DNA from: Candidatus Curtissbacteria bacterium RIFOXYA1_FULL_41_14
GTDB lineage: Bacteria > Patescibacteriota > Microgenomatia > Curtissbacterales > GWA2-41-24
Assembly: GCA_001775095.1 (NCBI GenBank)
Contig: MFCA01000025.1
Span: 22,994-86,993, forward strand
Length of the DNA stretch: 64,000 bases
Direction of reading: 5' to 3'
The translations under genes were made by a program, and so were the position numbers. The notes under the pieces were generated by a model. That model ran no database searches and was not told the origin of the DNA. It was given only the letters and a program-made list of their open reading frames with translations. This document shows positions 1,609 to 60,242 of this stretch, one piece after another. The stretch's first letter is position 1; every line of letters begins with the position of its first letter.

Positions 1609-3082
1609 GAGGTAAAGTATACGAGGAAGGCGAAGAATTATCAATGAAGCTTGGAAGAGTTTGGGAATCGCTAAATGGAGCTCTAATTGAACCGTATCTT
1701 CCACTACGATCTGATACTAATTGTAAAAAGTAGTGGTATTCCTGTTCAGGTGTTGTTGACTGACTGAAGATAAACCTTAATAGTTCTCTTTTACCTTCTA
1801 TCGTAAGATTACCTGCATACCACTGATGAAGACGGAAACCAATTCCATAGGCGTAGAGATAAGTTCGCTTCACAGGGTCATCTCTTCTTTCTTGAATCTG
1901 ATTTCTTATTTCGTCTTCGGGTTCTGCTGGTAAAAATCTGTGCATATATGCAATCATTTCCTCATCAGTGGACCCTGTGGTGTTGACCATAATGTGTATA
2001 TTGTTATAGATCATCTGTCTCAAACCTTCCAGCTCAAGCTCTGACTCTGTATGTTCTGAGAAATGCCGATGCAAACTTGGTACAAAAAGATGGACTGTCT
2101 GGGCAAACCCTTCAATGGGAATCTGTCCCGGATAATGAACGGATGTCAGGCCTAAAACCCGCAATAACTCACCCCTATCTATGGCATTTTTCCAGCTCTC
2201 CATTTGCGCCGCGTGTCCGGCAATCTCATGGGCTGCCATAGCTTCAACTTTACCTTCTGTCCACCTGCTTGCATGCCTGACAGGGTGAGTATTAATCTTT
2301 AATGAAAATCTTTCGTGGTCTCCGTCAATCCAATCAATCCAATAATCGTCTTCTTTGACGGCTTCAATATCGAGCTCTGGTGTTATCTTTTTACCCAGGA
2401 AGTCTGAAACTGTTCCAAGGTAAGTTGCAACATAATCTCTCATCTTATCCGGAAGTGTTTCTTCGGAAACTAGGTGTTCACGTCTATAGCGTTCAATCGA
2501 TTCACTGTCGATAGCTCCAAATCCCTTTGTGATTGAGTCAATCTGAGCCATAAGTGTGCTTTCTTCGATCATTTGCGGTCTTATACCCTGAGTTAAGCTG
2601 ATAAATTCTTCAAATGGAAATTCTTGGTTTGTTTTTCCTCGATAAAAGGTGGAGTGGGCTATAAGTTCTGCTAGTAGGAATTCCCGTTGGAGTTGGAGGG
2701 CTGCTGTTTTCCCATTTCTGGGCAGTATAATTCTTTCTGCTCTGCTACGAAGTTCGTCAATAGACCCCACAATTTCTGTCCATTCTCTTTTTGTGGGAGG
2801 GCCTTGATGCCATTTCTTCCTTCTTTCTAGGGCCCTGCGATCTCTTGGGCTTACAGGAACGAGGTCGAAATCAACTAGTTTACGGTGTGGTCCTTCCATC
2901 ACATACGCGTCGCGTAACACCTCTATGGCTTCGTCGGAGAGCTCATAAAGTTCATACTCTGGCCCTTTTTGCTCCCTCCTTCTAAAGATAGAGGGTATTA
3001 TTCCCCTGTCTTTGAATACTATTGGTCCCCTATCTCTGAATTGTTCTGGCCTACTGGCCATGTTTTGCCTCCATAAACCCAA
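1583..3082 (-). CDS. Hypothetical protein with an HEXXH motif (HEIAGH); putative zinc metallopeptidase
   Basis: A 499-aa ORF with the single motif 'AAHEIAGHAAQ'. I recognise no confident family. The C-terminus is low-complexity. Confidence 0.5.
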   Translation of the reverse strand: MGLWRQNMASRPEQFRDRGPIVFKDRGIIPSIFRRREQKGPEYELYELSDEAIEVLRDAYVMEGPHRKLVDFDLVPVSPRDRRALERRKKWHQGPPTKREWTEIVGSIDELRSRAERIILPRNGKTAALQLQREFLLAELIAHSTFYRGKTNQEFPFEEFISLTQGIRPQMIEESTLMAQIDSITKGFGAIDSESIERYRREHLVSEETLPDKMRDYVATYLGTVSDFLGKKITPELDIEAVKEDDYWIDWIDGDHERFSLKINTHPVRHASRWTEGKVEAMAAHEIAGHAAQMESWKNAIDRGELLRVLGLTSVHYPGQIPIEGFAQTVHLFVPSLHRHFSEHTESELELEGLRQMIYNNIHIMVNTTGSTDEEMIAYMHRFLPAEPEDEIRNQIQERRDDPVKRTYLYAYGIGFRLHQWYAGNLTIEGKRELLRFIFSQSTTPEQEYHYFLQLVSDRSGRYGSIRAPFSDSQTLPSFIDNSSPSSYTLPHGAAGETA

Positions 3083-18890: not shown

Positions 18891-18981
18891 GTCATTCCGG
18901 ACCTGATCCGGAATCTATACTTATCTGGATTCCCGCCCTTCGGTCTTGAACTCAGGGTCGAAAGACTTTCGCGGGAATGAC
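18891..18981. repeat. Copy of the palindromic structured element (gtcattccgg ... ggaatgac) in the csoR-pduO intergenic region
   Basis: Has terminal inverted repeats, an inner hairpin ttccgg-acctgat-ccggaa, and the module 'cccttcggtcttgaactcagggtcgaaag' shared with the 43683 copy. Confidence 0.65.
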
Positions 18982-19001: not shown

Positions 19002-19670
19002 GTGAAGATTTATACAAAAACCGGGGATGGTGGTACCACTTCCCTGTTTGGTGCCCGAAGAGTGGATAAAAATTCGGCAAGGATTGCAGCTTATGGAGAA
19101 GTTGATGAGTTGAATTCGTTAATCGGCGTAATACTTGCAGAATTAACTCCATATCCTGACTGTCATTCTGGGGAGCGAAGCGACTCCAGAATCGATTCTG
19201 GACAAGTCCTTCGACCTCGCTCAGGACCGTTTAAGGATCGTGAGTTTAATCGAACGGCCAGAATGACAAAGCAGAAATTAATCATCAAGAAACTTTTGAG
19301 GATTCAGTCGGAACTTTTTGTTTTAGGTGCTGACTTAGCAACACCAGCTGATGTTAAAACCAAGGTGCCAAGAATCACTAAAAGATATATAACAAGACTT
19401 GAGGAAGAAATTGATTCATGGAGTGATAAATTACCCAAACTACGTAATTTTATATTGCCTGGTGGAAATAAGGTGGGATCAAAGCTTCATCTGGCAAGGT
19501 CGGTTGTCCGGCGTGCAGAAAGAGCAATTGTTGACCTTAATAGGCAAGAAAAAATTAACCAAAATGTATTAATTTACACCAACCGCCTCTCCGATTGGTT
19601 TTTTGTCGCAGCAAGATATATTAACAAACTGGAAAATATCAGGGAAAATATTTGGAAAGGCAGGGGTTAA
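19002..19670 (+). CDS. pduO: ATP:cob(I)alamin adenosyltransferase, PduO type
   Basis: GTG start. MKIYTKTGDGGTTSLFGARRVDKNSARIAAYGEVDELNS... and ...IQSELFVLGADLATP match the PduO/MMAB family. The ORF carries an extra ~36 aa between the first two helices, described in the next feature. Confidence 0.85.
   Translation: MKIYTKTGDGGTTSLFGARRVDKNSARIAAYGEVDELNSLIGVILAELTPYPDCHSGERSDSRIDSGQVLRPRSGPFKDREFNRTARMTKQKLIIKKLLRIQSELFVLGADLATPADVKTKVPRITKRYITRLEEEIDSWSDKLPKLRNFILPGGNKVGSKLHLARSVVRRAERAIVDLNRQEKINQNVLIYTNRLSDWFFVAARYINKLENIRENIWKGRG
19161..19268. mobile_element. Palindromic element copy (reverse orientation) inserted in-frame within pduO (108 nt = 36 codons)
   Basis: tgtcattctgg...ccagaatgaca with inner ccagaatcgattctgg. 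It aligns to the 43683 copy in reverse complement. It encodes PYPDCHSGERSDSRIDSGQVLRPRSGPFKDREFNRTARMTK, with no stop codon, in a loop region of PduO. Confidence 0.7.
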
Positions 19671-21254: not shown

Positions 21255-24080
21255 CTAGCTGCATTTGCTCCAGCCGCAGGAGGGATTGATGCATTGACGG
21301 CAGCCTTCGGCAAAGACAACCGGGCTTGCGCAATCTGGGCAAACTACAAATTTATTTTCAATTATTTTTTCCTGATGAATGCTACTTACCGAACCGGTGT
21401 CGATTTGGTACTTACCCCCGACTGGGATATTCATCTGGGTACTTTTGGTGTTTCCCTTTGTTAAACCATTACCACTTCCTGTTTGACCGTTGGTATAAGC
21501 TGATTTGGCCGGGTAGTTTGTATGGCCGTTGGTTAAGGGAGTTTTTACAATGGATTCGATTGGTTCGTCTTGCCCAACTACTGGAAGGGTAAGTTGTTTG
21601 GCTTTGGCAATCTCCAATAAGGATTTACCGACGGCATCAAAGGCGGAAAGGACGCTGTCCGGTCCGATACCATAGGGCGTACCACAGGATATCCCGACTA
21701 GGTCTGTAGCAACCTCCTCCAAGCTCGCACCATATTTCAGGGCGCGGGATGCCAATCTGCCTGTAACTTCAGCGGCACCAGCCACATAACCGCCTGTTTT
21801 ACCGATAGTTACAAAAACCTCAACCGGCATACCTTCAGCATCCCGAAATACGGATGTATAAACATATCCAACATCAGCTTTCTTGCGAACTCTCATTCCC
21901 ACAGCTTCAGTTGGGGTCGACTTTTTTCTAGGAATTTGTGGTTGTGGTTCTTGGTAAATACGTTTACCGGTAAGCTGGTCATAATAAGAGTTATCTTTTT
22001 TAACCTCCAGGACTTGCTTAATTCTTGAACCGTCGCGATAAATTGTAGTCATGCGGCAACCAAGTTCGTATGTCAGCCAATAAGCTTGCCGGACATCTTC
22101 GACAGTCGCTTCATTTGGAAAATTGATTGTTTTGGAAATTCCGTTGTCAGTGTATTTCTGGAAAGCTGCTTCCATACGGATATGATCAGCAGGAGAAATA
22201 TCTTGGGCAACTACAAAAACCCTTGTCAGATCCTGAGGTATCTCACCTAAATTCTGAATTGAACCACGATTCTCTTCAATCTTGGAAAGTAATTGGTCGG
22301 AATCAATCCCCTTATTTTTCAAGGCCCCTAAAAAGTAGGAGTTAGTATTAAAAAGTCTTTTACCCTCGATGGTATTTTTGGCAAATGTCAGCGCAAAATA
22401 CGGTTCAATACCGCTGGAACAATCAGCAAGCAGGGAAATTGTGCCGGTTGGAGCGATAGTTGTTCTGGCAGCATTTCTTGGATGAATTTTACCTGGTTGG
22501 TTGTAGATAGAATCTTTGAAGGATGGAAATACCCCGCGAACCTTTGCTAGGTTCACACTGGCATTGTCTGCTTCATCTTGAATGAACTTCATGACTTTTT
22601 CTGCCAAGGAGAAAGCTTCAAAAGTGTTATAGCCAATACCAAGTTTGGCCAGCATATCTGCCCAGCCCATAACTCCAAGGCCGATTCTTCTGATTTTTGA
22701 GGTCATCTGGTCAATTTCCGCAACCGGATATTCGTTCATATCAAGAACGTTATCCAAAAAGTGAACTGCCTTGTGGATTGTTTGTTTTAACTCTTGCCAG
22801 TCGATTCTTTCTTCGACCGGTTCATCATATTGAGCGGAAGCCCTTCGACTTTGCTCAGGATCTTCGACCCTTCGACTTTGCTCAGGATCTTCGACCCTTC
22901 GACTTTGCTCAGTGTCTTCGACTTCGTCTTTAACGAACTTGGAGAGATTAACAGAGCCTAAAGTACAGGCATCATATGGGAGAAGCGGCTGTTCTGCACA
23001 GGGATTGGTAGCTTCGATTTGGCCAAGTTTTGGAGTTGGATTAGCCCGGGAATCGTTGATTCTATCAATTAAAACCACTCCCGGATCTCCGTACTGCCAG
23101 GCAAGTCTGGTTATTAAATCAAAGACTCTTTTGGCATTGAGTTTGTCAGTAACTTCACCGGTCCGAGGATTAACAAGGTTGTATCCTTCCCCTTTATGTT
23201 TAGCACGACAAGCTTCATATAACTTTCTAACTGCTTCTTCAACGCGAACATTTTTAAGATCAAGGTCGCGAATTGTGTATGCTTCTCTTATTTCTTCTAT
23301 AATCTCGTTAATTTCCAACTCGCCATCCGCACCTCGACTACGCTCGGTGTCTTCGACAAACTTGGCATCTTTTTTGACTTTTTCCATAAATTCCTCAGTT
23401 ATACTTATGGAGATATTAAAGTTAGTTAGCGAAAACTCATCGACTTTGTGAACTGCAAAACGCAAAATATCAGGGTGTGTATAGTGAAGGATTCCCATAT
23501 TAGCACCGCGGCGAACTCCACCCTGTCTTATTTGCGAAGTTACGTCGTTATAGGCTTGCAAAAAAGCAACTGGACCGGTTGATTTGCCCTTTGAGGTACC
23601 AATAATATCGTCTTTTGGACGGAGCTTGGAAAAAGAAAAGCCTGTCCCACCGCCCATTTTATGAATCATTGCCATATCCCGCATCGTTCTGAGAATTGAT
23701 TCCATATCATCCTCAATAGGTAAGACAAAACAAGCTGAAAGCGATTGGCCGGTTTTACCGGAGTTGACTAAAGTCGGAGTATTGGGAATAAATCTCTGGG
23801 AAGCCATAAGTTTGTAAAATTCTTTGGCTGTCTTTTTGTGGATATTGCCTTCGTAAATTCTGTCGGCAGCGGCAATATAGTAGGCAACACGCCAGAAAAG
23901 TTTTTTTGGAGTTTCTACCGGTTCCCCTTTCTCGTTACGGAAAGAGTAACGGGTTTGGGCAATATAGGCAGCATTTTCGGATAGAGTCGGTTCAAATAAA
24001 TCTTTCGGGACAGCCGGAATCTTTCTGCCTATTGCGCGAACATCTTCTCTTGTGAATTTCTTCTTTAACACTTTTTTCAT
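21255..24080 (-). CDS. nrdJ: Ribonucleoside-diphosphate/triphosphate reductase, class II (adenosylcobalamin-dependent)
   Basis: A 941-aa protein with the class II RNR fold signature and a C-terminal Cys-rich zinc ribbon (CPDCASP...CRQCINPSCGWSKCS). It overlaps nrdR by 4 nt. It contains in-frame repeat insertions, described in the next feature. Confidence 0.9.
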   Translation of the reverse strand: MKKVLKKKFTREDVRAIGRKIPAVPKDLFEPTLSENAAYIAQTRYSFRNEKGEPVETPKKLFWRVAYYIAAADRIYEGNIHKKTAKEFYKLMASQRFIPNTPTLVNSGKTGQSLSACFVLPIEDDMESILRTMRDMAMIHKMGGGTGFSFSKLRPKDDIIGTSKGKSTGPVAFLQAYNDVTSQIRQGGVRRGANMGILHYTHPDILRFAVHKVDEFSLTNFNISISITEEFMEKVKKDAKFVEDTERSRGADGELEINEIIEEIREAYTIRDLDLKNVRVEEAVRKLYEACRAKHKGEGYNLVNPRTGEVTDKLNAKRVFDLITRLAWQYGDPGVVLIDRINDSRANPTPKLGQIEATNPCAEQPLLPYDACTLGSVNLSKFVKDEVEDTEQSRRVEDPEQSRRVEDPEQSRRASAQYDEPVEERIDWQELKQTIHKAVHFLDNVLDMNEYPVAEIDQMTSKIRRIGLGVMGWADMLAKLGIGYNTFEAFSLAEKVMKFIQDEADNASVNLAKVRGVFPSFKDSIYNQPGKIHPRNAARTTIAPTGTISLLADCSSGIEPYFALTFAKNTIEGKRLFNTNSYFLGALKNKGIDSDQLLSKIEENRGSIQNLGEIPQDLTRVFVVAQDISPADHIRMEAAFQKYTDNGISKTINFPNEATVEDVRQAYWLTYELGCRMTTIYRDGSRIKQVLEVKKDNSYYDQLTGKRIYQEPQPQIPRKKSTPTEAVGMRVRKKADVGYVYTSVFRDAEGMPVEVFVTIGKTGGYVAGAAEVTGRLASRALKYGASLEEVATDLVGISCGTPYGIGPDSVLSAFDAVGKSLLEIAKAKQLTLPVVGQDEPIESIVKTPLTNGHTNYPAKSAYTNGQTGSGNGLTKGNTKSTQMNIPVGGKYQIDTGSVSSIHQEKIIENKFVVCPDCASPVVFAEGCRQCINPSCGWSKCS
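21256..21282. repeat. 27-bp direct repeat (right copy) equal to the authentic 3' end of the nrdJ CDS
   Basis: Pairs with 20744-20770 at 26 of 27 positions and brackets the DUF4258/DUF2283 cassette. Confidence 0.8.
22841..22921. repeat. Three tandem in-frame copies of a 27-nt unit (ccttcgactttgctcaggatcttcgac) within nrdJ
   Basis: Encodes ...VEDTEQSRRVEDPEQSRRVEDPEQSRR... A further single copy sits at about 23332-23357 (VEDTERSRG). The same unit is in gltX and in the palindromic elements. Confidence 0.85.
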
Positions 24081-28130: not shown

Positions 28131-28233
28131 TCGAATATTATAGCATCAGATAAGGCTAAAACATTTAACAGCTGAGGGTATAAGTAGCGAGGGTACAGTT
28201 ACATTGGTGCGCAGTCGTGCTGAAATGGCCGGT

Positions 28234-29208: not shown

Positions 29209-29277
29209 TTCAGTCAGCTGGGCATGCCGGTCAAGACCCTATTCTTTTGACTCCTCAATTTATTTCTCGTTTGTGTT

Positions 29278-29685
29278 TTATACGAGACCTACGCCGGAAA
29301 CATATTTGCCATTTCTTTTAACTTTTACTCTTTTAAATATATCTGGGTAGGTTAAAAGAAGATCATTTATATTTTTCTCTGTAAATTCATTTTTCCAGTT
29401 CCATTCTTTACTGAGATGACTAATGCTGTGTCTCTTTTCCTTTTCCAAGTAGTTAAGTAGGATGGTTTTCCGGCGCCATGTTATTATCTCTTTTCTTAAT
29501 CGAAAACCCGCGATAACCCACATTACTATGATTAAAAAGACCACTGGCGGTCTCCACGATTCTGGAAACTGAGACCCCCATTGATTAAATATAAAAGGGA
29601 GAAACACTATTGACAATATAATCAACACCGACCAGGGCTCATCCTTGATAATATTTGCTATTTCTCTCACAGATTTGGTGTTCAT
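29278..29685 (-). CDS. Hypothetical membrane protein
   Basis: A 135-aa protein with two TM helices. Confidence 0.4.
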   Translation of the reverse strand: MNTKSVREIANIIKDEPWSVLIILSIVFLPFIFNQWGSQFPESWRPPVVFLIIVMWVIAGFRLRKEIITWRRKTILLNYLEKEKRHSISHLSKEWNWKNEFTEKNINDLLLTYPDIFKRVKVKRNGKYVSGVGLV

Positions 29686-29703
29686 ATCTACTTGTGTCCA
29701 ATC

Positions 29704-29719
29704 TGGCTGCCAGACTAGG
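29704..29719. repeat. Duplicate of the tRNA-Gln 3' end (tggctgccagactagg versus tggctgccggactagg at 30151-30166; 15 of 16 match)
   Basis: Same orientation as the tRNA copy and 431 bp away. The enclosed segment carries the GIY-YIG ORF plus repeat-derived sequence. This is an att-like direct-repeat signature. Confidence 0.6.
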
Positions 29720-29775
29720 TATCTTTCGTTCTTCGAACTTCAGAATACCATGGGGTCCATCAGAAAAATCTTTCA

Positions 29776-30045
29776 CTAAAGCTTCTTTAGTAATTCCAAC
29801 TCCCCTTTTATCAAAGCCTCTTTTTTAGCTCTTGTCCATTTTTTTACTTGAAGCTCTCGGTTCATTGCAGATTTTATGTCTAGATACTTTTCTGTGTAAA
29901 CAATGCTTACTGGTGTTTTGCCTCGCAAATATTTTGCGCCTCTTGATGAATTTGAATTATGTTCTTTTAACCTTTTATCTATATCGGTCGTCATCCCACA
30001 ATAAAAGGAATTATCCGAACATCGAAGAATGTAAAAGTGGTACAT
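29776..30045 (-). CDS. GIY-YIG nuclease domain protein (UPF0213/YhbQ-like)
   Basis: MYHFYILRCSDNSFYCGMTTDIDKRLKEHN...GAKYL is the stand-alone GIY-YIG domain. It is 89 aa long. Confidence 0.8.
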   Translation of the reverse strand: MYHFYILRCSDNSFYCGMTTDIDKRLKEHNSNSSRGAKYLRGKTPVSIVYTEKYLDIKSAMNRELQVKKWTRAKKEALIKGELELLKKL

Positions 30046-30150
30046 GAGTTCTTCGATTACCCTTCGACTCGGTCAATAAATTGATCTCGCTCAGGGCATT
30101 CAACTCACTTCTTAAGGGGCAATAGTCATGAGCGAACGAAGTGAGTCGAA

Positions 30151-30224
30151 TGGCTGCCGGACTAGGATTCGGACCTAGATAAGCAGATCCAGAATCTGCT
30201 GTCCTACCATTAGACGATCCGGCA
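30151..30224 (-). tRNA. tRNA-Gln (anticodon CUG)
   Basis: Hand-folded on the minus strand: acceptor TGCCGGA/TCCGGCA with U1-A72, discriminator G73, CCA encoded, D-stem GTCT/GGAC, anticodon arm GCAGA-TTCTGGA-TCTGC (CTG), T-arm CTAGG-TCCGAAT-CCTAG. The T-loop has C at position 55, which is unusual. Confidence 0.7.
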
Positions 30225-31190: not shown

Positions 31191-31289
31191 ACGATTTTTA
31201 GACGATTTGCAAGTATTTTCTTAGTTCAAATTATTACTTCGTGCCTGTGGACGACGAGGATATAGTTAGAATCGCATTCCGCAAATTTT

Positions 31290-31434
31290 ATAAACTTCCG
31301 AGGGCTAAGAGCACTCGGTATTGTTCTTTAAGTTTACATGAGCGAGCAGATGTTTCCTCGGCTCGGAAGTATGTATTCGTTCTCACATTCATCCGTGGGC
31401 TAATAGTCCATGGTCTTCTGCGAACGAATATAAA
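31290..31434. repeat. Structured repeat family 2, copy A (about 145 nt)
   Basis: About 80% identical to 38156-38295. Shared blocks are ataaacttccgagggctaa, aagtttacatgag.gagcaga, aagtatgtattcg, cattcatccg and ctgcga.cgaatataaa. The hairpin ccgtgg...ccatgg corresponds to ccgagg...cctcgg in copy B with a compensatory change. Confidence 0.7.
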
Positions 31435-32278: not shown

Positions 32279-32779
32279 AGGTTTATGATAGCAAATTGAA
32301 GCTAATTAGAGCTGGCACAGGCTAAAGTTCTGAATACTCTTTACTCCAACAATCTTTCTCAGGACCGTCCCAAATCACCCCTGGATATTTGGTAAGTTCA
32401 GCCCAATTCGCGGTTCGGAAATCATCAACTACTCCCAGCACGACTGTGCACCCATGTAACCGTACCCTCGACATTCACCCTTCAAATACCCCGATAATGA
32501 GGCTACGGTTGCAAAAGCGTCCTTGTTTTCACCTTGTTAACGATACACCCCCAACCATAGTCTTGGTTTCCAGTAAGGTTTTTAGGGTTAATAGAAATTT
32601 AATCTCGCCCGCTTAGTGAAGAATGTATGGTAGAGTCTAAGAAAGAGGTCTAAGCTACGTTAATTGAAGTACCAGACTATCTATCGATAAGTCAGAATTT
32701 TGCTCGTGAGTTATCACTTGCGTCACAAGGGGAAACTACGAGCGTACCATTTATAAAAAATCCACTTCCAGAATACCCA

Positions 32780-36115: not shown

Positions 36116-36533
36116 TCCTAAATCATTTTACACTTCATATAATGATTATGTTTTTGCGAAGCAAAAGGCAAGACTTCGACGATGAGCTCAGTCGAATCGC
36201 TTCTGCGAATACGAAGTATAATTTAACATTAATTAAGAAATTTGATCTAATCAAAAAATATTTTCAAAGTTAAACAGACATATTACTTAATCTGCTAATT
36301 ACGAAGCTAAGCATATCTGGGAGTACTCTTAAGGTCAAATTTTCTTATGCTAAAGTAGCTTATTAGAAACTGATGCTAGTTGGATCTACTGAATAGCGAA
36401 GCTAGGGAGAGAATCGCAACGCGGCAATCGCCTGAGACTATAACCCTAGGCACCGCATCCGACTATAATGACGGAATGGGTCTTGACCGACACGCTCAGC
36501 TTTTTTCCCAGCAGGAAGTAAAGGTCGCTTTGG

Positions 36534-38110: not shown

Positions 38111-38155
38111 ATCATGTCAATATTACTACATTTCTTGATATGTATAATGAAATCA

Positions 38156-38295
38156 ATAAACTTCCGAGGGCTAAAAGCCCTCGGTATTTGCTCTTCAAGT
38201 TTACATGAGAGAGCAGAATACCCTCGGAAGTATGTATTCGCTTTCGCATTCATCCGAGGATTAATAATCCTCGGTATTCTGCGAGCGAATATAAA
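38156..38295. repeat. Structured repeat family 2, copy B (about 140 nt), immediately 5' of the 38307 gene
   Basis: See copy A. It contains five ccgagg/cctcgg hexamers in alternating orientation, able to form mutually exclusive hairpins. It ends 11 nt before the ATG at 38307. Confidence 0.7.
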
Positions 38296-43682: not shown

Positions 43683-43790
43683 GTCATTCTGGCCCTTCGG
43701 TCTTGAGCTCAGGGTCGAAAGGCTTGTCCAGAATCCATATCTTGATTAGATTCTGGAGTCGTCGAGTCAGACTCGACTCCCCAGAATGAC
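43683..43790. repeat. Full-length copy (108 nt) of the palindromic structured element in the dxr 5' region
   Basis: gtcattctgg-[cccttcggtcttgagctcagggtcgaaaggctt]-gtccagaatcc-atatcttgatta-gattctggagtc-gtcgagtcagactcgac-tccccagaatgac. It has nested inverted repeats and a -10-like tataat about 25 nt upstream. Confidence 0.8.
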
Positions 43791-46863: not shown

Positions 46864-48181
46864 AATTTTTAAGTCTGGTAATCGTCTCCTCTTGACCAAG
46901 TTGTTCCATAGATTCGTAAAGAGGAGGGGTAATTATACTACCTGAGACAATATTTCTGACAGCAGAAATTAACTCTATCCTGTCGATTTTTTTAAGGACA
47001 GCTGTTTCCTCGATTAATTTCCTGATGACAGAATTATTCCAAACCTTACTTTTTTCAAAAACTGAGATTACATCAGCAATCAATGAAACAGACAGTGATA
47101 TTTTGGGAATATTTGAAATTTTCGGGCGGTTGAAAAAGAAGTCCGCCATTTTTGGGAATTCCAACAATGTTTTCATCCGTTCCCTGACAAGTGGTATTAA
47201 AGATCTGATTTTTTCAAGATCATATTGGGGAAAAAGGGTTTTAATCTGTTTGGCAAGTCTGTCGTCTTTGATCTTTTTCATCCACTCCCGATTAAACCAA
47301 TTTAATTTTTCGCCGTTGAAGATCGGGCTGTTTTTGTTAAGGCGATCAAGCGAAAATTCGCGAGTTAAATCATTTAGAGAAAATATTTCTCTATCGTCTT
47401 TGGGCGCCCAACCAAGAAGGCTCAAAAAGTTAACTAGAGCTTCGGGCAGATAACCTTCATCTATATATTCGATAACTGATTTTGCACCTTCGCGCTTTGA
47501 AAGCTTTTTACGATCAGGTCCCAGGATTGGCGGCAGATGAATAAAAGCAGGATATAGCCACGAAAAGGCCTCGTACAAAAGAAGATGTTTTGGAGTTGAT
47601 GATATCCATTCGTCCCCGCGGATGACGTGGGAGATTTGCATATCGTGATCATCAACAACAGAGGCAAAGTGATACGTCGGGAAACCGTCGGATTTTACTA
47701 TGATAAAGTCTTCGAGTACATCGGATAAAAACTTAATTTCGCCATGAACCAAATCTTGCCATTTTAGGGTTTTTCCTTTTGGAATTTTGAAGCGCCAAGA
47801 TCCTTGGTCTTCATAAACCAGCTTCTGGTCTTTTAGAATTTTCAGGTGTTTCTGGTAAAGATCCAGTCTTCTGGACTGCTCGTAATACTCATCCCATTTC
47901 AAACCAAGAACCGAGAGGCTTTCTTGAATTATTTCTCGAGAGCCTGGAACTAGTCTTTTACGATCGGTGTCCTCAAGCCTGAGTATGAAGGTGCCATCCT
48001 GATTTTTTGCATACAAAAAATCAAAAAGGGCTGTTCTTATATTGCCGATATGAGGAACTCCAGTTGGCGACGGGGCATATCGAACACGGACCCTTCGACT
48101 ACGCTCAGGGTCTTCGACCTTTCGACTACGCTCAGGGTCTTCGACCTTTCGACTACGCTGCGGGTCTTCGGTCTTTTTCAT
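46847..48181 (-). CDS. gltX: Glutamyl-tRNA synthetase with an N-terminal repeat-encoded extension
   Basis: RVRYAPSPTGVPHIGNIRTA (HIGH) and KLSKREG (KMSKS). The first 30 residues, MKKTEDPQRSRKVEDPERSRKVEDPERSRR, are encoded by the 27-nt tandem repeat. There is no alternative start downstream of the repeat. Confidence 0.85.
   Translation of the reverse strand: MKKTEDPQRSRKVEDPERSRKVEDPERSRRVRVRYAPSPTGVPHIGNIRTALFDFLYAKNQDGTFILRLEDTDRKRLVPGSREIIQESLSVLGLKWDEYYEQSRRLDLYQKHLKILKDQKLVYEDQGSWRFKIPKGKTLKWQDLVHGEIKFLSDVLEDFIIVKSDGFPTYHFASVVDDHDMQISHVIRGDEWISSTPKHLLLYEAFSWLYPAFIHLPPILGPDRKKLSKREGAKSVIEYIDEGYLPEALVNFLSLLGWAPKDDREIFSLNDLTREFSLDRLNKNSPIFNGEKLNWFNREWMKKIKDDRLAKQIKTLFPQYDLEKIRSLIPLVRERMKTLLEFPKMADFFFNRPKISNIPKISLSVSLIADVISVFEKSKVWNNSVIRKLIEETAVLKKIDRIELISAVRNIVSGSIITPPLYESMEQLGQEETITRLKNYVKKK
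48092..48172. repeat. Three tandem in-frame copies of the 27-nt unit (ccttcgactacgctcagggtcttcgac) at the 5' end of gltX
   Basis: It is the same unit as in nrdJ with 2-3 substitutions, and it encodes VEDPERSRK repeats. Confidence 0.85.
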
Positions 48182-60077: not shown

Positions 60078-60170
60078 CTTTTAGCCTAAGCTTTGCTTGG
60101 AAAACACCAGTGTCATGTTGAATAAATTTAGTACCCCTTCTTTTACCATGCAAGTTGCAGGATTGTCAAT

Positions 60171-60242
60171 CCTTCGACTTCGCTCAGGATGACTCTGAGT
60201 TAAATCGAAGAGTCAATGGGTTCGACAAGCTCACCATTGACT
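60171..60242. repeat. Repeat-derived segment: one 20-nt core unit (ccttcgacttcgctcaggat) plus the hairpin gagtcaatgg...ccattgactc
   Basis: The core is identical in pattern to the nrdJ/gltX tandem unit. The 10-bp inverted repeat is separated by 14 nt. Confidence 0.6.

Follow-up and report, generated by a model that had tools for sequence, protein, structure and literature searches.

Why does the last stretch of a tRNA gene occur a second time, a few hundred nucleotides further on, with a nuclease gene in between? We asked this of a tRNA-Gln locus in Candidatus Curtissbacteria bacterium RIFOXYA1_FULL_41_14, within a stretch of 64,000 nucleotides of contig MFCA01000025.1 (hereafter the window). 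The last 16 nt of the tRNA-Gln gene recur downstream of it, and the two copies bracket a gene for a small stand-alone GIY-YIG nuclease. The original prediction, made from the sequence of this locus, took the duplication as a sign of integrase-mediated insertion and left open whether the segment was a tiny mobile unit or the remnant of a larger, mostly deleted island. Comparison with related loci indicates that a cassette of about 447 bp has been inserted between the working tRNA-Gln gene and the displaced end of the original one. The tiny unit fits best, and a remnant is unlikely, as the compact cassette recurs in other genomes with a constrained right end.

The cassette and its insertion site

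All parts of the locus lie on the minus strand. In the direction of the gene strand, and with comparison loci given by their labels (L006 and so on), the features are as follows.

30151 to 30224 (-): intact tRNA-Gln gene, anticodon CTG, with encoded CCA (ARAGORN; Rfam tRNA model, 58 bits)
30151 to 30166 (-): upstream copy of the 16-nt direct repeat, TGGCTGCCGGACTAGG, the attL-like core within the working tRNA
30046 to 30150 (-): 5' module of 105 nt, from the tRNA end through the hairpin and the CCTGAGCG..GAGTCGAAGG unit to the start codon (alignment with L006, L009-L013 and others)
30097 to 30152 (-): CCA-anchored hairpin, 5' arm (C)CATTCGACTCACTTC, 3' arm GAAGTGAGTTGAATG
30061 to 30095 (-): split CCTTCGA..GCTCAGG unit, on the gene strand CCTGAGCGAG-17 nt-GAGTCGAAGG, adjoining or overlapping the ribosome-binding region
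29776 to 30045 (-): stand-alone GIY-YIG nuclease gene, 89 aa, UPF0213/Slx1-like (PF01541, E = 5.8e-19)
29720 to 29775 (-): 3' tail of the cassette
29704 to 29719 (-): attR-like repeat copy CCTAGTCTGGCAGCCA, a relic taken to be the former 3' end of tRNA-Gln, displaced by the cassette
29686 to 29703 (-): trailer native to tRNA-Gln, GATTGGACACAAGTAGAT, which runs up to the 135-aa gene
29278 to 29685 (-): gene for a 135-aa protein of unknown function, which forms the conserved flank to the right of the insertion site

The tRNA call was borne out by both programs. On the gene strand the tRNA ends in ...CTAGG-TCCGAAT-CCTAG-TCCGGCA-G-CCA, and the 16-nt repeat comprises the 3' strands of the T-stem and of the acceptor stem, followed by the discriminator base and the CCA that the gene encodes. 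Its two copies agree at 15 of 16 positions (one mismatch) and are oriented alike, 431 nt apart, as had been described. They are the only matches to the 16-mer in the window at up to three mismatches. From base composition, matches with at most one mismatch are expected 3.7e-4 times in the whole window (both strands) and 8.6e-6 times within 3 kb downstream. The relic, including its mismatch, is kept in every contig that we read across this position except two: L003 has a different relic, and L118 has a deletion. We also considered whether a second tRNA-Gln lies, decayed but entire, behind the nuclease gene and rejected this, as similarity beyond the 16-mer equals that of shuffled controls (p about 0.7).

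Synteny around the tRNA-Gln supports insertion. L106/L107, which encode a homologue of the 135-aa protein (69% identity), hold a tRNA-Gln(CTG), then 21 nt, then the homologue's gene. This empty site reads ..CCAAGTCCCGCAGCA|AGATTGGAAAT..ATGAACACAAAA, and the window reads, after the cassette, relic CCTAGTCTGGCAGCCA|GATTGGACAC..ATGAACACCAAA. The relic and trailer of the window are collinear with the real tRNA-Gln 3' end and trailer in L106/L107 and in L016. Because L106/L107 show the tRNA directly before the same gene, we read the downstream 16-mer and its trailer as the end of the original tRNA-Gln. A GATTGGA(A/C)A homologue of the trailer directly follows the tRNA end, or its weak relic, in L106, L016 and L101. 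Homologues of the 135-aa protein also adjoin tRNA-Gln in L101-L103 (77% identity), where the site between the two genes (positions 2042-3000) holds other cargo, an open reading frame (ORF) of 248 aa that matches neither Pfam nor PHROG. What precedes GATTGGACAC there is no more than a weak relic of 8 nt (CCTGCCCC).

These comparisons establish the boundaries of the cassette as 29704/29720 to 30150, or 447 bp with one copy of the 16-nt repeat counted, and place its insertion at the T-loop/T-stem boundary. Along the gene strand its order is the tRNA 3' end (..CCTAGTCCGGCAGCCA), the hairpin, the CCTGAGCG..GAGTCGAAGG unit, the nuclease gene and a tail ending in ..AACGAAAGATA. The 3' part of the tRNA-Gln at 30151 to 30224 was probably supplied by the cassette. 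The cassette appears to be dispensable, as suggested by another strain or assembly of the same species (L118; GCA_000994225.1, LBYX01000005.1, positions 2330-2500) in which a 97-bp deletion between TTGGA microhomologies takes out the 3' end of the GIY-YIG gene, the tail and the relic.

The short ORF, the hairpin and the split repeat unit first noticed in the bracketed segment were all recovered. The hairpin arms (30097-30111 and 30138-30152) are 15 nt each, are 93% complementary and enclose a 26-nt loop that contains the motif TCGCTCA; the folding z-score is -3.9 as DNA and -2.6 as RNA. The CCTTCGA..GCTCAGG pattern has six matches in the window against none expected. A scan of 30046 to 30150, which spans the interval from tRNA to ATG, detected nothing that resembles a promoter or a terminator, and Rfam at E <= 10 returned only the tRNA and noise, with no known RNA family in the 5' module. 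At the other side of the gene, the last 20 nt of the tail (29720-29739; AGTTCGAAGAACGAAAGATA on the gene strand) form a conserved right end.

The nuclease gene is the sole ORF with a family match in the 431-bp segment; two ORFs of 57 and 71 aa, which overlap it or its tail on the opposite (plus) strand, were not scanned. The PF01541 match spans residues 1-75 of 89, and at 19.5 bits the match to the group I intron endonuclease model is weak, below its cutoff of 56. The nearest solved structures are 1zg2 (BH0048, 2.1e-16) and 1ywl (EF2693, 7e-15). By sequence membership, single-domain architecture and a family size of about 90-100 aa, the protein belongs with UPF0213 and the prokaryotic Slx1-like proteins, and it does not have the additional DNA-binding domain of GIY-YIG homing endonucleases. 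We detected 181 homologues of 72-137 aa with conserved active-site residues, and R25, E28, H29, N30, Y39, R41 and E64 are invariant across 25 homologues. Between cassette copies, the proportion of nonsynonymous differences (pN) is 0.10-0.15 and that of synonymous differences (pS) is 0.72-0.89, which is saturated. Judged by these substitutions, the gene is under strong purifying selection.

Recurrence behind tRNA and tmRNA genes

A scan with the GIY-YIG alignment, taking one genome per species, gave 80 loci. At 15 of these a co-oriented RNA gene lies at most 400 nt upstream: seven are tRNA genes, and eight are genes for transfer-messenger RNA (tmRNA), which is present once per genome. In L036 and L055 a tmRNA 3' relic stands immediately before the module without an intact tmRNA, and close homologues led to two further tRNA-Gln cases (L111 and L113). 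The hosts are Microgenomates, where the partner is always tRNA-Gln, Elusimicrobia, Planctomycetota, Acidobacteriota, Deltaproteobacteria and others. The genes that flank the cassettes differ at almost every locus. L006, L012, L036 and L055 hold cassettes with only a tRNA or tmRNA 3' fragment and no tRNA in their context, and two copies within one Elusimicrobia metagenome-assembled genome (L044 and L045) are only 71% identical in DNA.

The hairpin recurs along with the gene. A stem of at least 10 bp that starts from the last 1-3 nt of the RNA gene (CCA-TTCGAC...GTCGAA-TGG) is present in 15 of 16 tRNA/tmRNA-adjacent loci, and compensatory variants occur (CTCGAC/GTCGAG, TGTTCGAC/GTCGAACA and GGATTCGAC/GTCGAATCC). 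The arms have changed on both sides in 8 of 13 pairs and none of 500 shuffles reaches the observed values, counts that are biased upward by the choice of the 3' arms as best partners. Like the nuclease gene, the hairpin is under constraint. A TTCGAC-type motif within 6 nt of the RNA gene end is carried by 14 of 20 GIY-linked RNA genes and by 3 of 20 unlinked ones, which ties the motif to the nuclease gene. Mismatches in the hairpins comprise nine G.T and eleven A.C pairs. Without an asymmetry, the mismatches favour neither RNA nor DNA as the working form of the hairpin, which may be either.

The right end of the cassette, ..GTTCGAA(G/A)AACGAAAGATA, occurs next to three tRNA-Gln relics that differ from one another, as do the flanks. 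In the window it is followed by relic CCTAGTCTGGCAGCCA and the 135-aa gene; in L003, from the same species, by CCTAGCCCGGCAAC and a degenerate older module; and in L110, another Curtissbacteria locus (76% protein identity), by CCTAGTCCCGCAGC and an unrelated flank. Compared with the window, the 20-nt right end is identical in L003 and agrees at 19 of 20 positions in L110. Since synonymous sites between the copies are saturated, a right end so nearly identical must be under constraint. Recognisable relics would then be either young or functional. Relics also follow the GIY-YIG gene in L009, L115 and L036, the last being a tmRNA relic.

The tRNA genes themselves carry a further pattern. Acceptor and T arms of one type (TGCCGGA..CCTAGTCCGGCAGC) are common to the cassette-linked tRNA-Gln genes of the window, L009, L111 and L113, which belong to Curtissbacteria, Roizmanbacteria and Woykebacteria and include both anticodons. 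None of eight unlinked tRNA-Gln genes has these arms, and the relics carry 'native' acceptor types. This comparison of four linked with eight unlinked genes is suggestive, and it agrees with an element that carries along a tRNA 3' end of its own.

How the cassette may have moved

We favour a site-specific, integrase-less cassette that supplies a replacement tRNA 3' end and whose nuclease promotes its spread or retention, and we hold this explanation with about even confidence. Insertion of such a cassette would have left the tRNA functional, with the former 3' end (29704-29719) and its trailer shifted to the downstream side of the cassette. A small circle that integrates in Campbell fashion at the T-loop/T-stem boundary would produce the observed topology. 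The same topology could result from double-strand-break repair, with the nuclease cutting tRNA and tmRNA genes at or near their T-arm or hairpin DNA, much as in homing and with no recombinase acting in trans. Repair of the break would then copy the cassette from a filled site, with homology provided by the tRNA on one side and the relic on the other. A self-contained cassette is favoured because the cargo is always the same nuclease gene, and we infer that the nuclease itself drives mobility or retention. Expression of the gene by read-through from the tRNA promoter is plausible, since nothing like a promoter or terminator was detected in between.

A broader proposal can be put forward tentatively. 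The GIY-YIG gene and the CCA-anchored hairpin, about 0.45 kb in all, could together form a minimal mobile element that is autonomous and inserts at the T-arm and 3' end of tRNA and tmRNA genes in many bacterial phyla. A structure-specific nuclease and host repair, for which the RNA gene and its relic offer ready homology arms, would replace integrase or transposase in such an element, and the widespread TTCGAC..GCTCAGG repeats would be its non-autonomous derivatives.

Several points weigh against an integrase-less cassette. To our knowledge, no GIY-YIG hydrolase performs site-specific recombination, and the 89-aa nuclease has no DNA-binding domain. Inserts without the GIY-YIG gene, from 48 nt to about 2 kb long and flanked by tRNA 3'-end duplicates, exist in L061, L080, L009 (at tRNA-Lys) and L015, so the duplication process may not depend on the nuclease. 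Most tRNA/tmRNA-adjacent cassettes have no detectable downstream relic. There is no presence/absence polymorphism within the species among the contigs read: all carry the cassette, including every one with the identical 135-aa protein, and one has the 97-bp internal deletion. Copies that share a genome are old: the divergence of L044 from L045 rules out recent copying within that genome. The upward bias in the hairpin pairing counts belongs here too. Finally, the pair may have been inherited vertically as a linked unit and lost from L106 by repeat-mediated deletion, as linkage of tRNA-Gln and the GIY-YIG gene is very common in Microgenomates.

The main rival retains an integrase. A tyrosine-integrase island at tRNA-Gln may have made the 16-nt att (attachment-site) duplication and then suffered deletions, or the cassette may be a cis-mobilizable passenger of an integrase encoded elsewhere. 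We regard this as possible, if rather doubtful. A direct repeat of the tRNA 3' end together with a replacement end is the classic mark of integrase insertion at tRNA and tmRNA genes, and the window has just such a repeat, starting from the T-loop boundary, and probably an element-borne 3' end. Its segment is an insertion into the 3' part of a tRNA gene flanked by a direct repeat, as in integrative elements of tRNA and tmRNA genes, and it is att-flanked without recombination genes, as in island remnants and cis-mobilizable elements (CIMEs). The same kind of duplication surrounds the GIY-less inserts at other tRNAs. Stacking is seen in L015 (tRNA, 2 kb, relic, GIY-YIG gene) in L003 (relic, then old module) and in L036, where a relic stands on either side and the nearest 3 kb are free of tmRNA, and the same hotspot holds other cargo in L101-L103.

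The searches for an integrase speak the other way. No tyrosine or serine recombinase gene lies next to the att-like site, and Pfam found no integrase or recombinase domain in the cassette or the neighbouring genes of the window. None recurs either in the 81 ORFs that flank 18 comparable loci, among the top 25 of 67 Pfam families, a scope in which a lone integrase at one locus could be missed and which to that extent counts against the integrase-less explanation. Of the integrase-mediated insertion originally proposed, the insertion at the tRNA-Gln 3' end is supported and the integrase is not. A parent element was sought through the predicted junction of right end and relic, ..AACGAAAGATA-CCTAG-TCCGGCAGCCA-TTCGACTC.., which has no match in viral contigs; this junction search turned up no integrase-bearing parent. 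GIY-YIG homologues in viral contigs (at most 52% identity) are without the module or the adjacency, and so is a Rhizobium phage copy. Two further properties are at odds with an island or a passenger. The cargo is constant (module and GIY-YIG gene) and starts exactly at the RNA gene end across distant phyla, and the right end has been kept beside three relics while neutral sites became saturated, which a random deletion remnant would not do.

A weaker rival, which we consider decidedly unlikely, is a resident, non-mobile partner gene that is co-transcribed with the tRNA or tmRNA and whose product or leader hairpin acts in processing, repair or protection, the relic being an unrelated local rearrangement. 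Co-oriented adjacency conserved across phyla, the lack of a promoter or terminator between tRNA and gene, and strong purifying selection on the gene would all be expected of such a partner. Prokaryotic Slx1-like proteins have moreover been seen as vertically inherited repair factors, with some fusions to tRNA methyltransferases noted (PMC1564403), and L044 and L045, two copies in a single genome, have diverged to 71% DNA identity as old paralogues would. However, empty and filled sites have a common, precise boundary at the relic, and the same cassette end meets different relics. Flanking genes that vary at almost all loci, and cassettes with a mere tRNA or tmRNA 3' fragment in tRNA-free contexts (L006, L012, L036 and L055), also sit badly with a resident gene.

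That the repeat is a chance match or what remains of a tandem tRNA-Gln duplication is refuted: its shortness is all that favours this, whereas 8.6e-6 matches are expected within 3 kb, the repeat and its mismatch are conserved across the contigs read bar L003 and L118, tRNA similarity beyond the 16-mer does not rise above shuffled controls (p about 0.7), and the relic and trailer are collinear with the real tRNA-Gln ends of relatives.

Related repeats, known systems and significance

Short repeats that resemble parts of the cassette are frequent in the window. TTCGACT occurs 15 times (4.4 expected) and GCTCAGG eight times (1.8 expected), almost all on the plus strand. Tandem and solo TTCGAC..GCTCAGG copies of a 27-nt repeat, which resemble the A-B part of the 5' module, lie at 22839-22922, 48089-48172, 19207-19230 and 60170-60193. 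Some fall within long ORFs, the copies at 22839-22922 within a 941-aa ORF (21255-24080, minus strand). A 40-nt repeat pair of 90% identity (18929-18968 and 43686-43725) and a GATTCTGGACAAG..TTCGA repeat family (1-25, 19191-19216 and 43713-43739) overlap the TTCGA-type motif of the cassette repeats.

Other repeats touch tRNA ends. A 35-nt inverted repeat (28188-28222 and 32436-32470, 91% complementary) brackets the whole locus, with the kinase gene at one end and the M24 peptidase gene at the other, and its arm at 32436 is preceded by CTCCCAGC, which resembles a tRNA-Gln end. About 45 nt of the inverted-repeat sequence (ACGACTGTGCA.CCATGTAACCGTAC..) come directly after the tRNA-Gln 3' relic behind the GIY-YIG gene in L115 (Woesebacteria). 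This inverted repeat may be a conserved trailer or a recombination scar, with a hint of inversion. Another repeat, which measures about 146 nt, contains internal hairpins (ATAAACTTCCGAGGGC...GCGAGCGAATATAAA) and resembles a miniature inverted-repeat transposable element (MITE), occurs twice in the window (31289-31434 and 38155-38295) and abuts a tRNA-Gln relic in a Roizmanbacteria locus (L009, 3290-3505). The GIY-less inserts downstream of tRNAs measure 86, 119 and 48 nt, with one of 2 kb (L009 1516-1700, L080 2029-2240, L061 214-350 and L015 821-2960, respectively). Their flanking tRNA 3'-end duplicates are 15-20 nt long, and the 86-nt insert begins with CTTCGACAAGCTCAGGG.

A further motif, GGGTCT(T/A)GACCGAC(A/C)CGCTCAGC, precedes genes at several Microgenomates loci and may be a lineage-specific promoter element. 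It occurs in the window at 36478-36501 and 29216-29239 (reverse complement), in L016 at 2340-2365 and 2965-2990, and in L115 upstream of the GIY-YIG gene. The wider neighbourhood offered little. A neighbouring gene had been described as a compositionally distinct methyltransferase, but its GC content of 0.416 does not stand out from the window mean (0.402 +/- 0.037) and its sole Pfam hit is below threshold; no compositional oddity was found in the locus or the neighbouring genes. When synteny was followed via the kinase gene, relatives at 72-75% identity had none of the neighbouring genes in common.

The cassette resembles several known systems and coincides with none of them. Like P4-type tyrosine integrase islands and prophages, it is inserted into the 3' part of an RNA gene at the T-loop region, probably brings a replacement 3' end, leaves the displaced end as a direct repeat and can stack in tandem. 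Unlike the integrase islands of tRNA and tmRNA genes, it has no integrase gene, measures 447 bp and not kilobases, has a GIY-YIG hydrolase as its only gene and carries a conserved hairpin that starts from the CCA end. CIMEs are heterogeneous deletion products of a particular integrative and conjugative element, flanked by att sites and devoid of recombination genes. The cassette shares with them the att-like repeats at a tRNA gene, the missing integrase and the possibility of tandem arrays, but differs in that one compact module with a nuclease gene recurs across phyla with constrained ends. Integron cassettes are similar in their size of roughly 0.5 kb, single and apparently promoterless ORF, imperfect palindrome, fixed insertion position and reading from an upstream promoter. 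Here, however, the hairpin lies 5' of the ORF on the tRNA end, there is no IntI/attI platform, and the cargo is always the same gene.

Homing normally leaves no target duplication, unlike what is seen at the cassette. Free-standing GIY-YIG homing genes do share with it a nuclease gene that lies between conserved genes and next to tRNAs, and presence or absence among relatives. The Seg genes of phage T4 are of this kind, for example that of SegB in a tRNA gene cluster (PMC13096335). Seg and I-TevI-type enzymes exceed 200 aa and have C-terminal DNA-binding domains, whereas the cassette protein is a bare 89-aa Slx1/UPF0213 catalytic domain. Two IMG/VR contigs (L127 and L139) carry distant GIY-YIG homologues, at about 40-50% identity, within phage tRNA gene clusters and without the hairpin module, an arrangement that recalls T4 segB. 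With systems of the type of repetitive extragenic palindromes and their associated transposases (REP/RAYT), or of MITEs, the cassette has in common dispersed short palindromic repeats akin to the sequence beside the nuclease gene; its enzyme is a GIY-YIG protein and not an HUH/Y1 transposase.

The closest relatives of known structure are the UPF0213/Slx1-like BH0048 and EF2693, which have the same family, size and single-domain architecture. Stand-alone Slx1-like GIY-YIG proteins have been described as vertically inherited repair proteins (PMC1564403), and the tRNA-related passages of that paper draw no link to tRNA or tmRNA 3' ends, a hairpin module or insertion behaviour. In the searchable literature, whose coverage is incomplete, we found no description that connects GIY-YIG/UPF0213 proteins with tRNA or tmRNA 3' ends or with these repeats.

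Whichever explanation applies, annotation is affected, through relics and repeat units inside called ORFs, and so is the use of scars beside tRNA genes as markers of past insertions. If the cassette is moved in trans by an integrase, it would be a widespread and overlooked hitch-hiker, one that would account for tRNA 3'-end relics, for hairpins behind tRNA and tmRNA genes and for common short repeats in genomes of the candidate phyla radiation and other bacteria. If it mobilises itself, few protein-coding mobile elements of bacteria would be smaller. The cassette would then also represent a new, recombinase-free way of targeting tRNA and tmRNA genes and would give a concrete, testable role to UPF0213, the large uncharacterised family of prokaryotic Slx1-like proteins.

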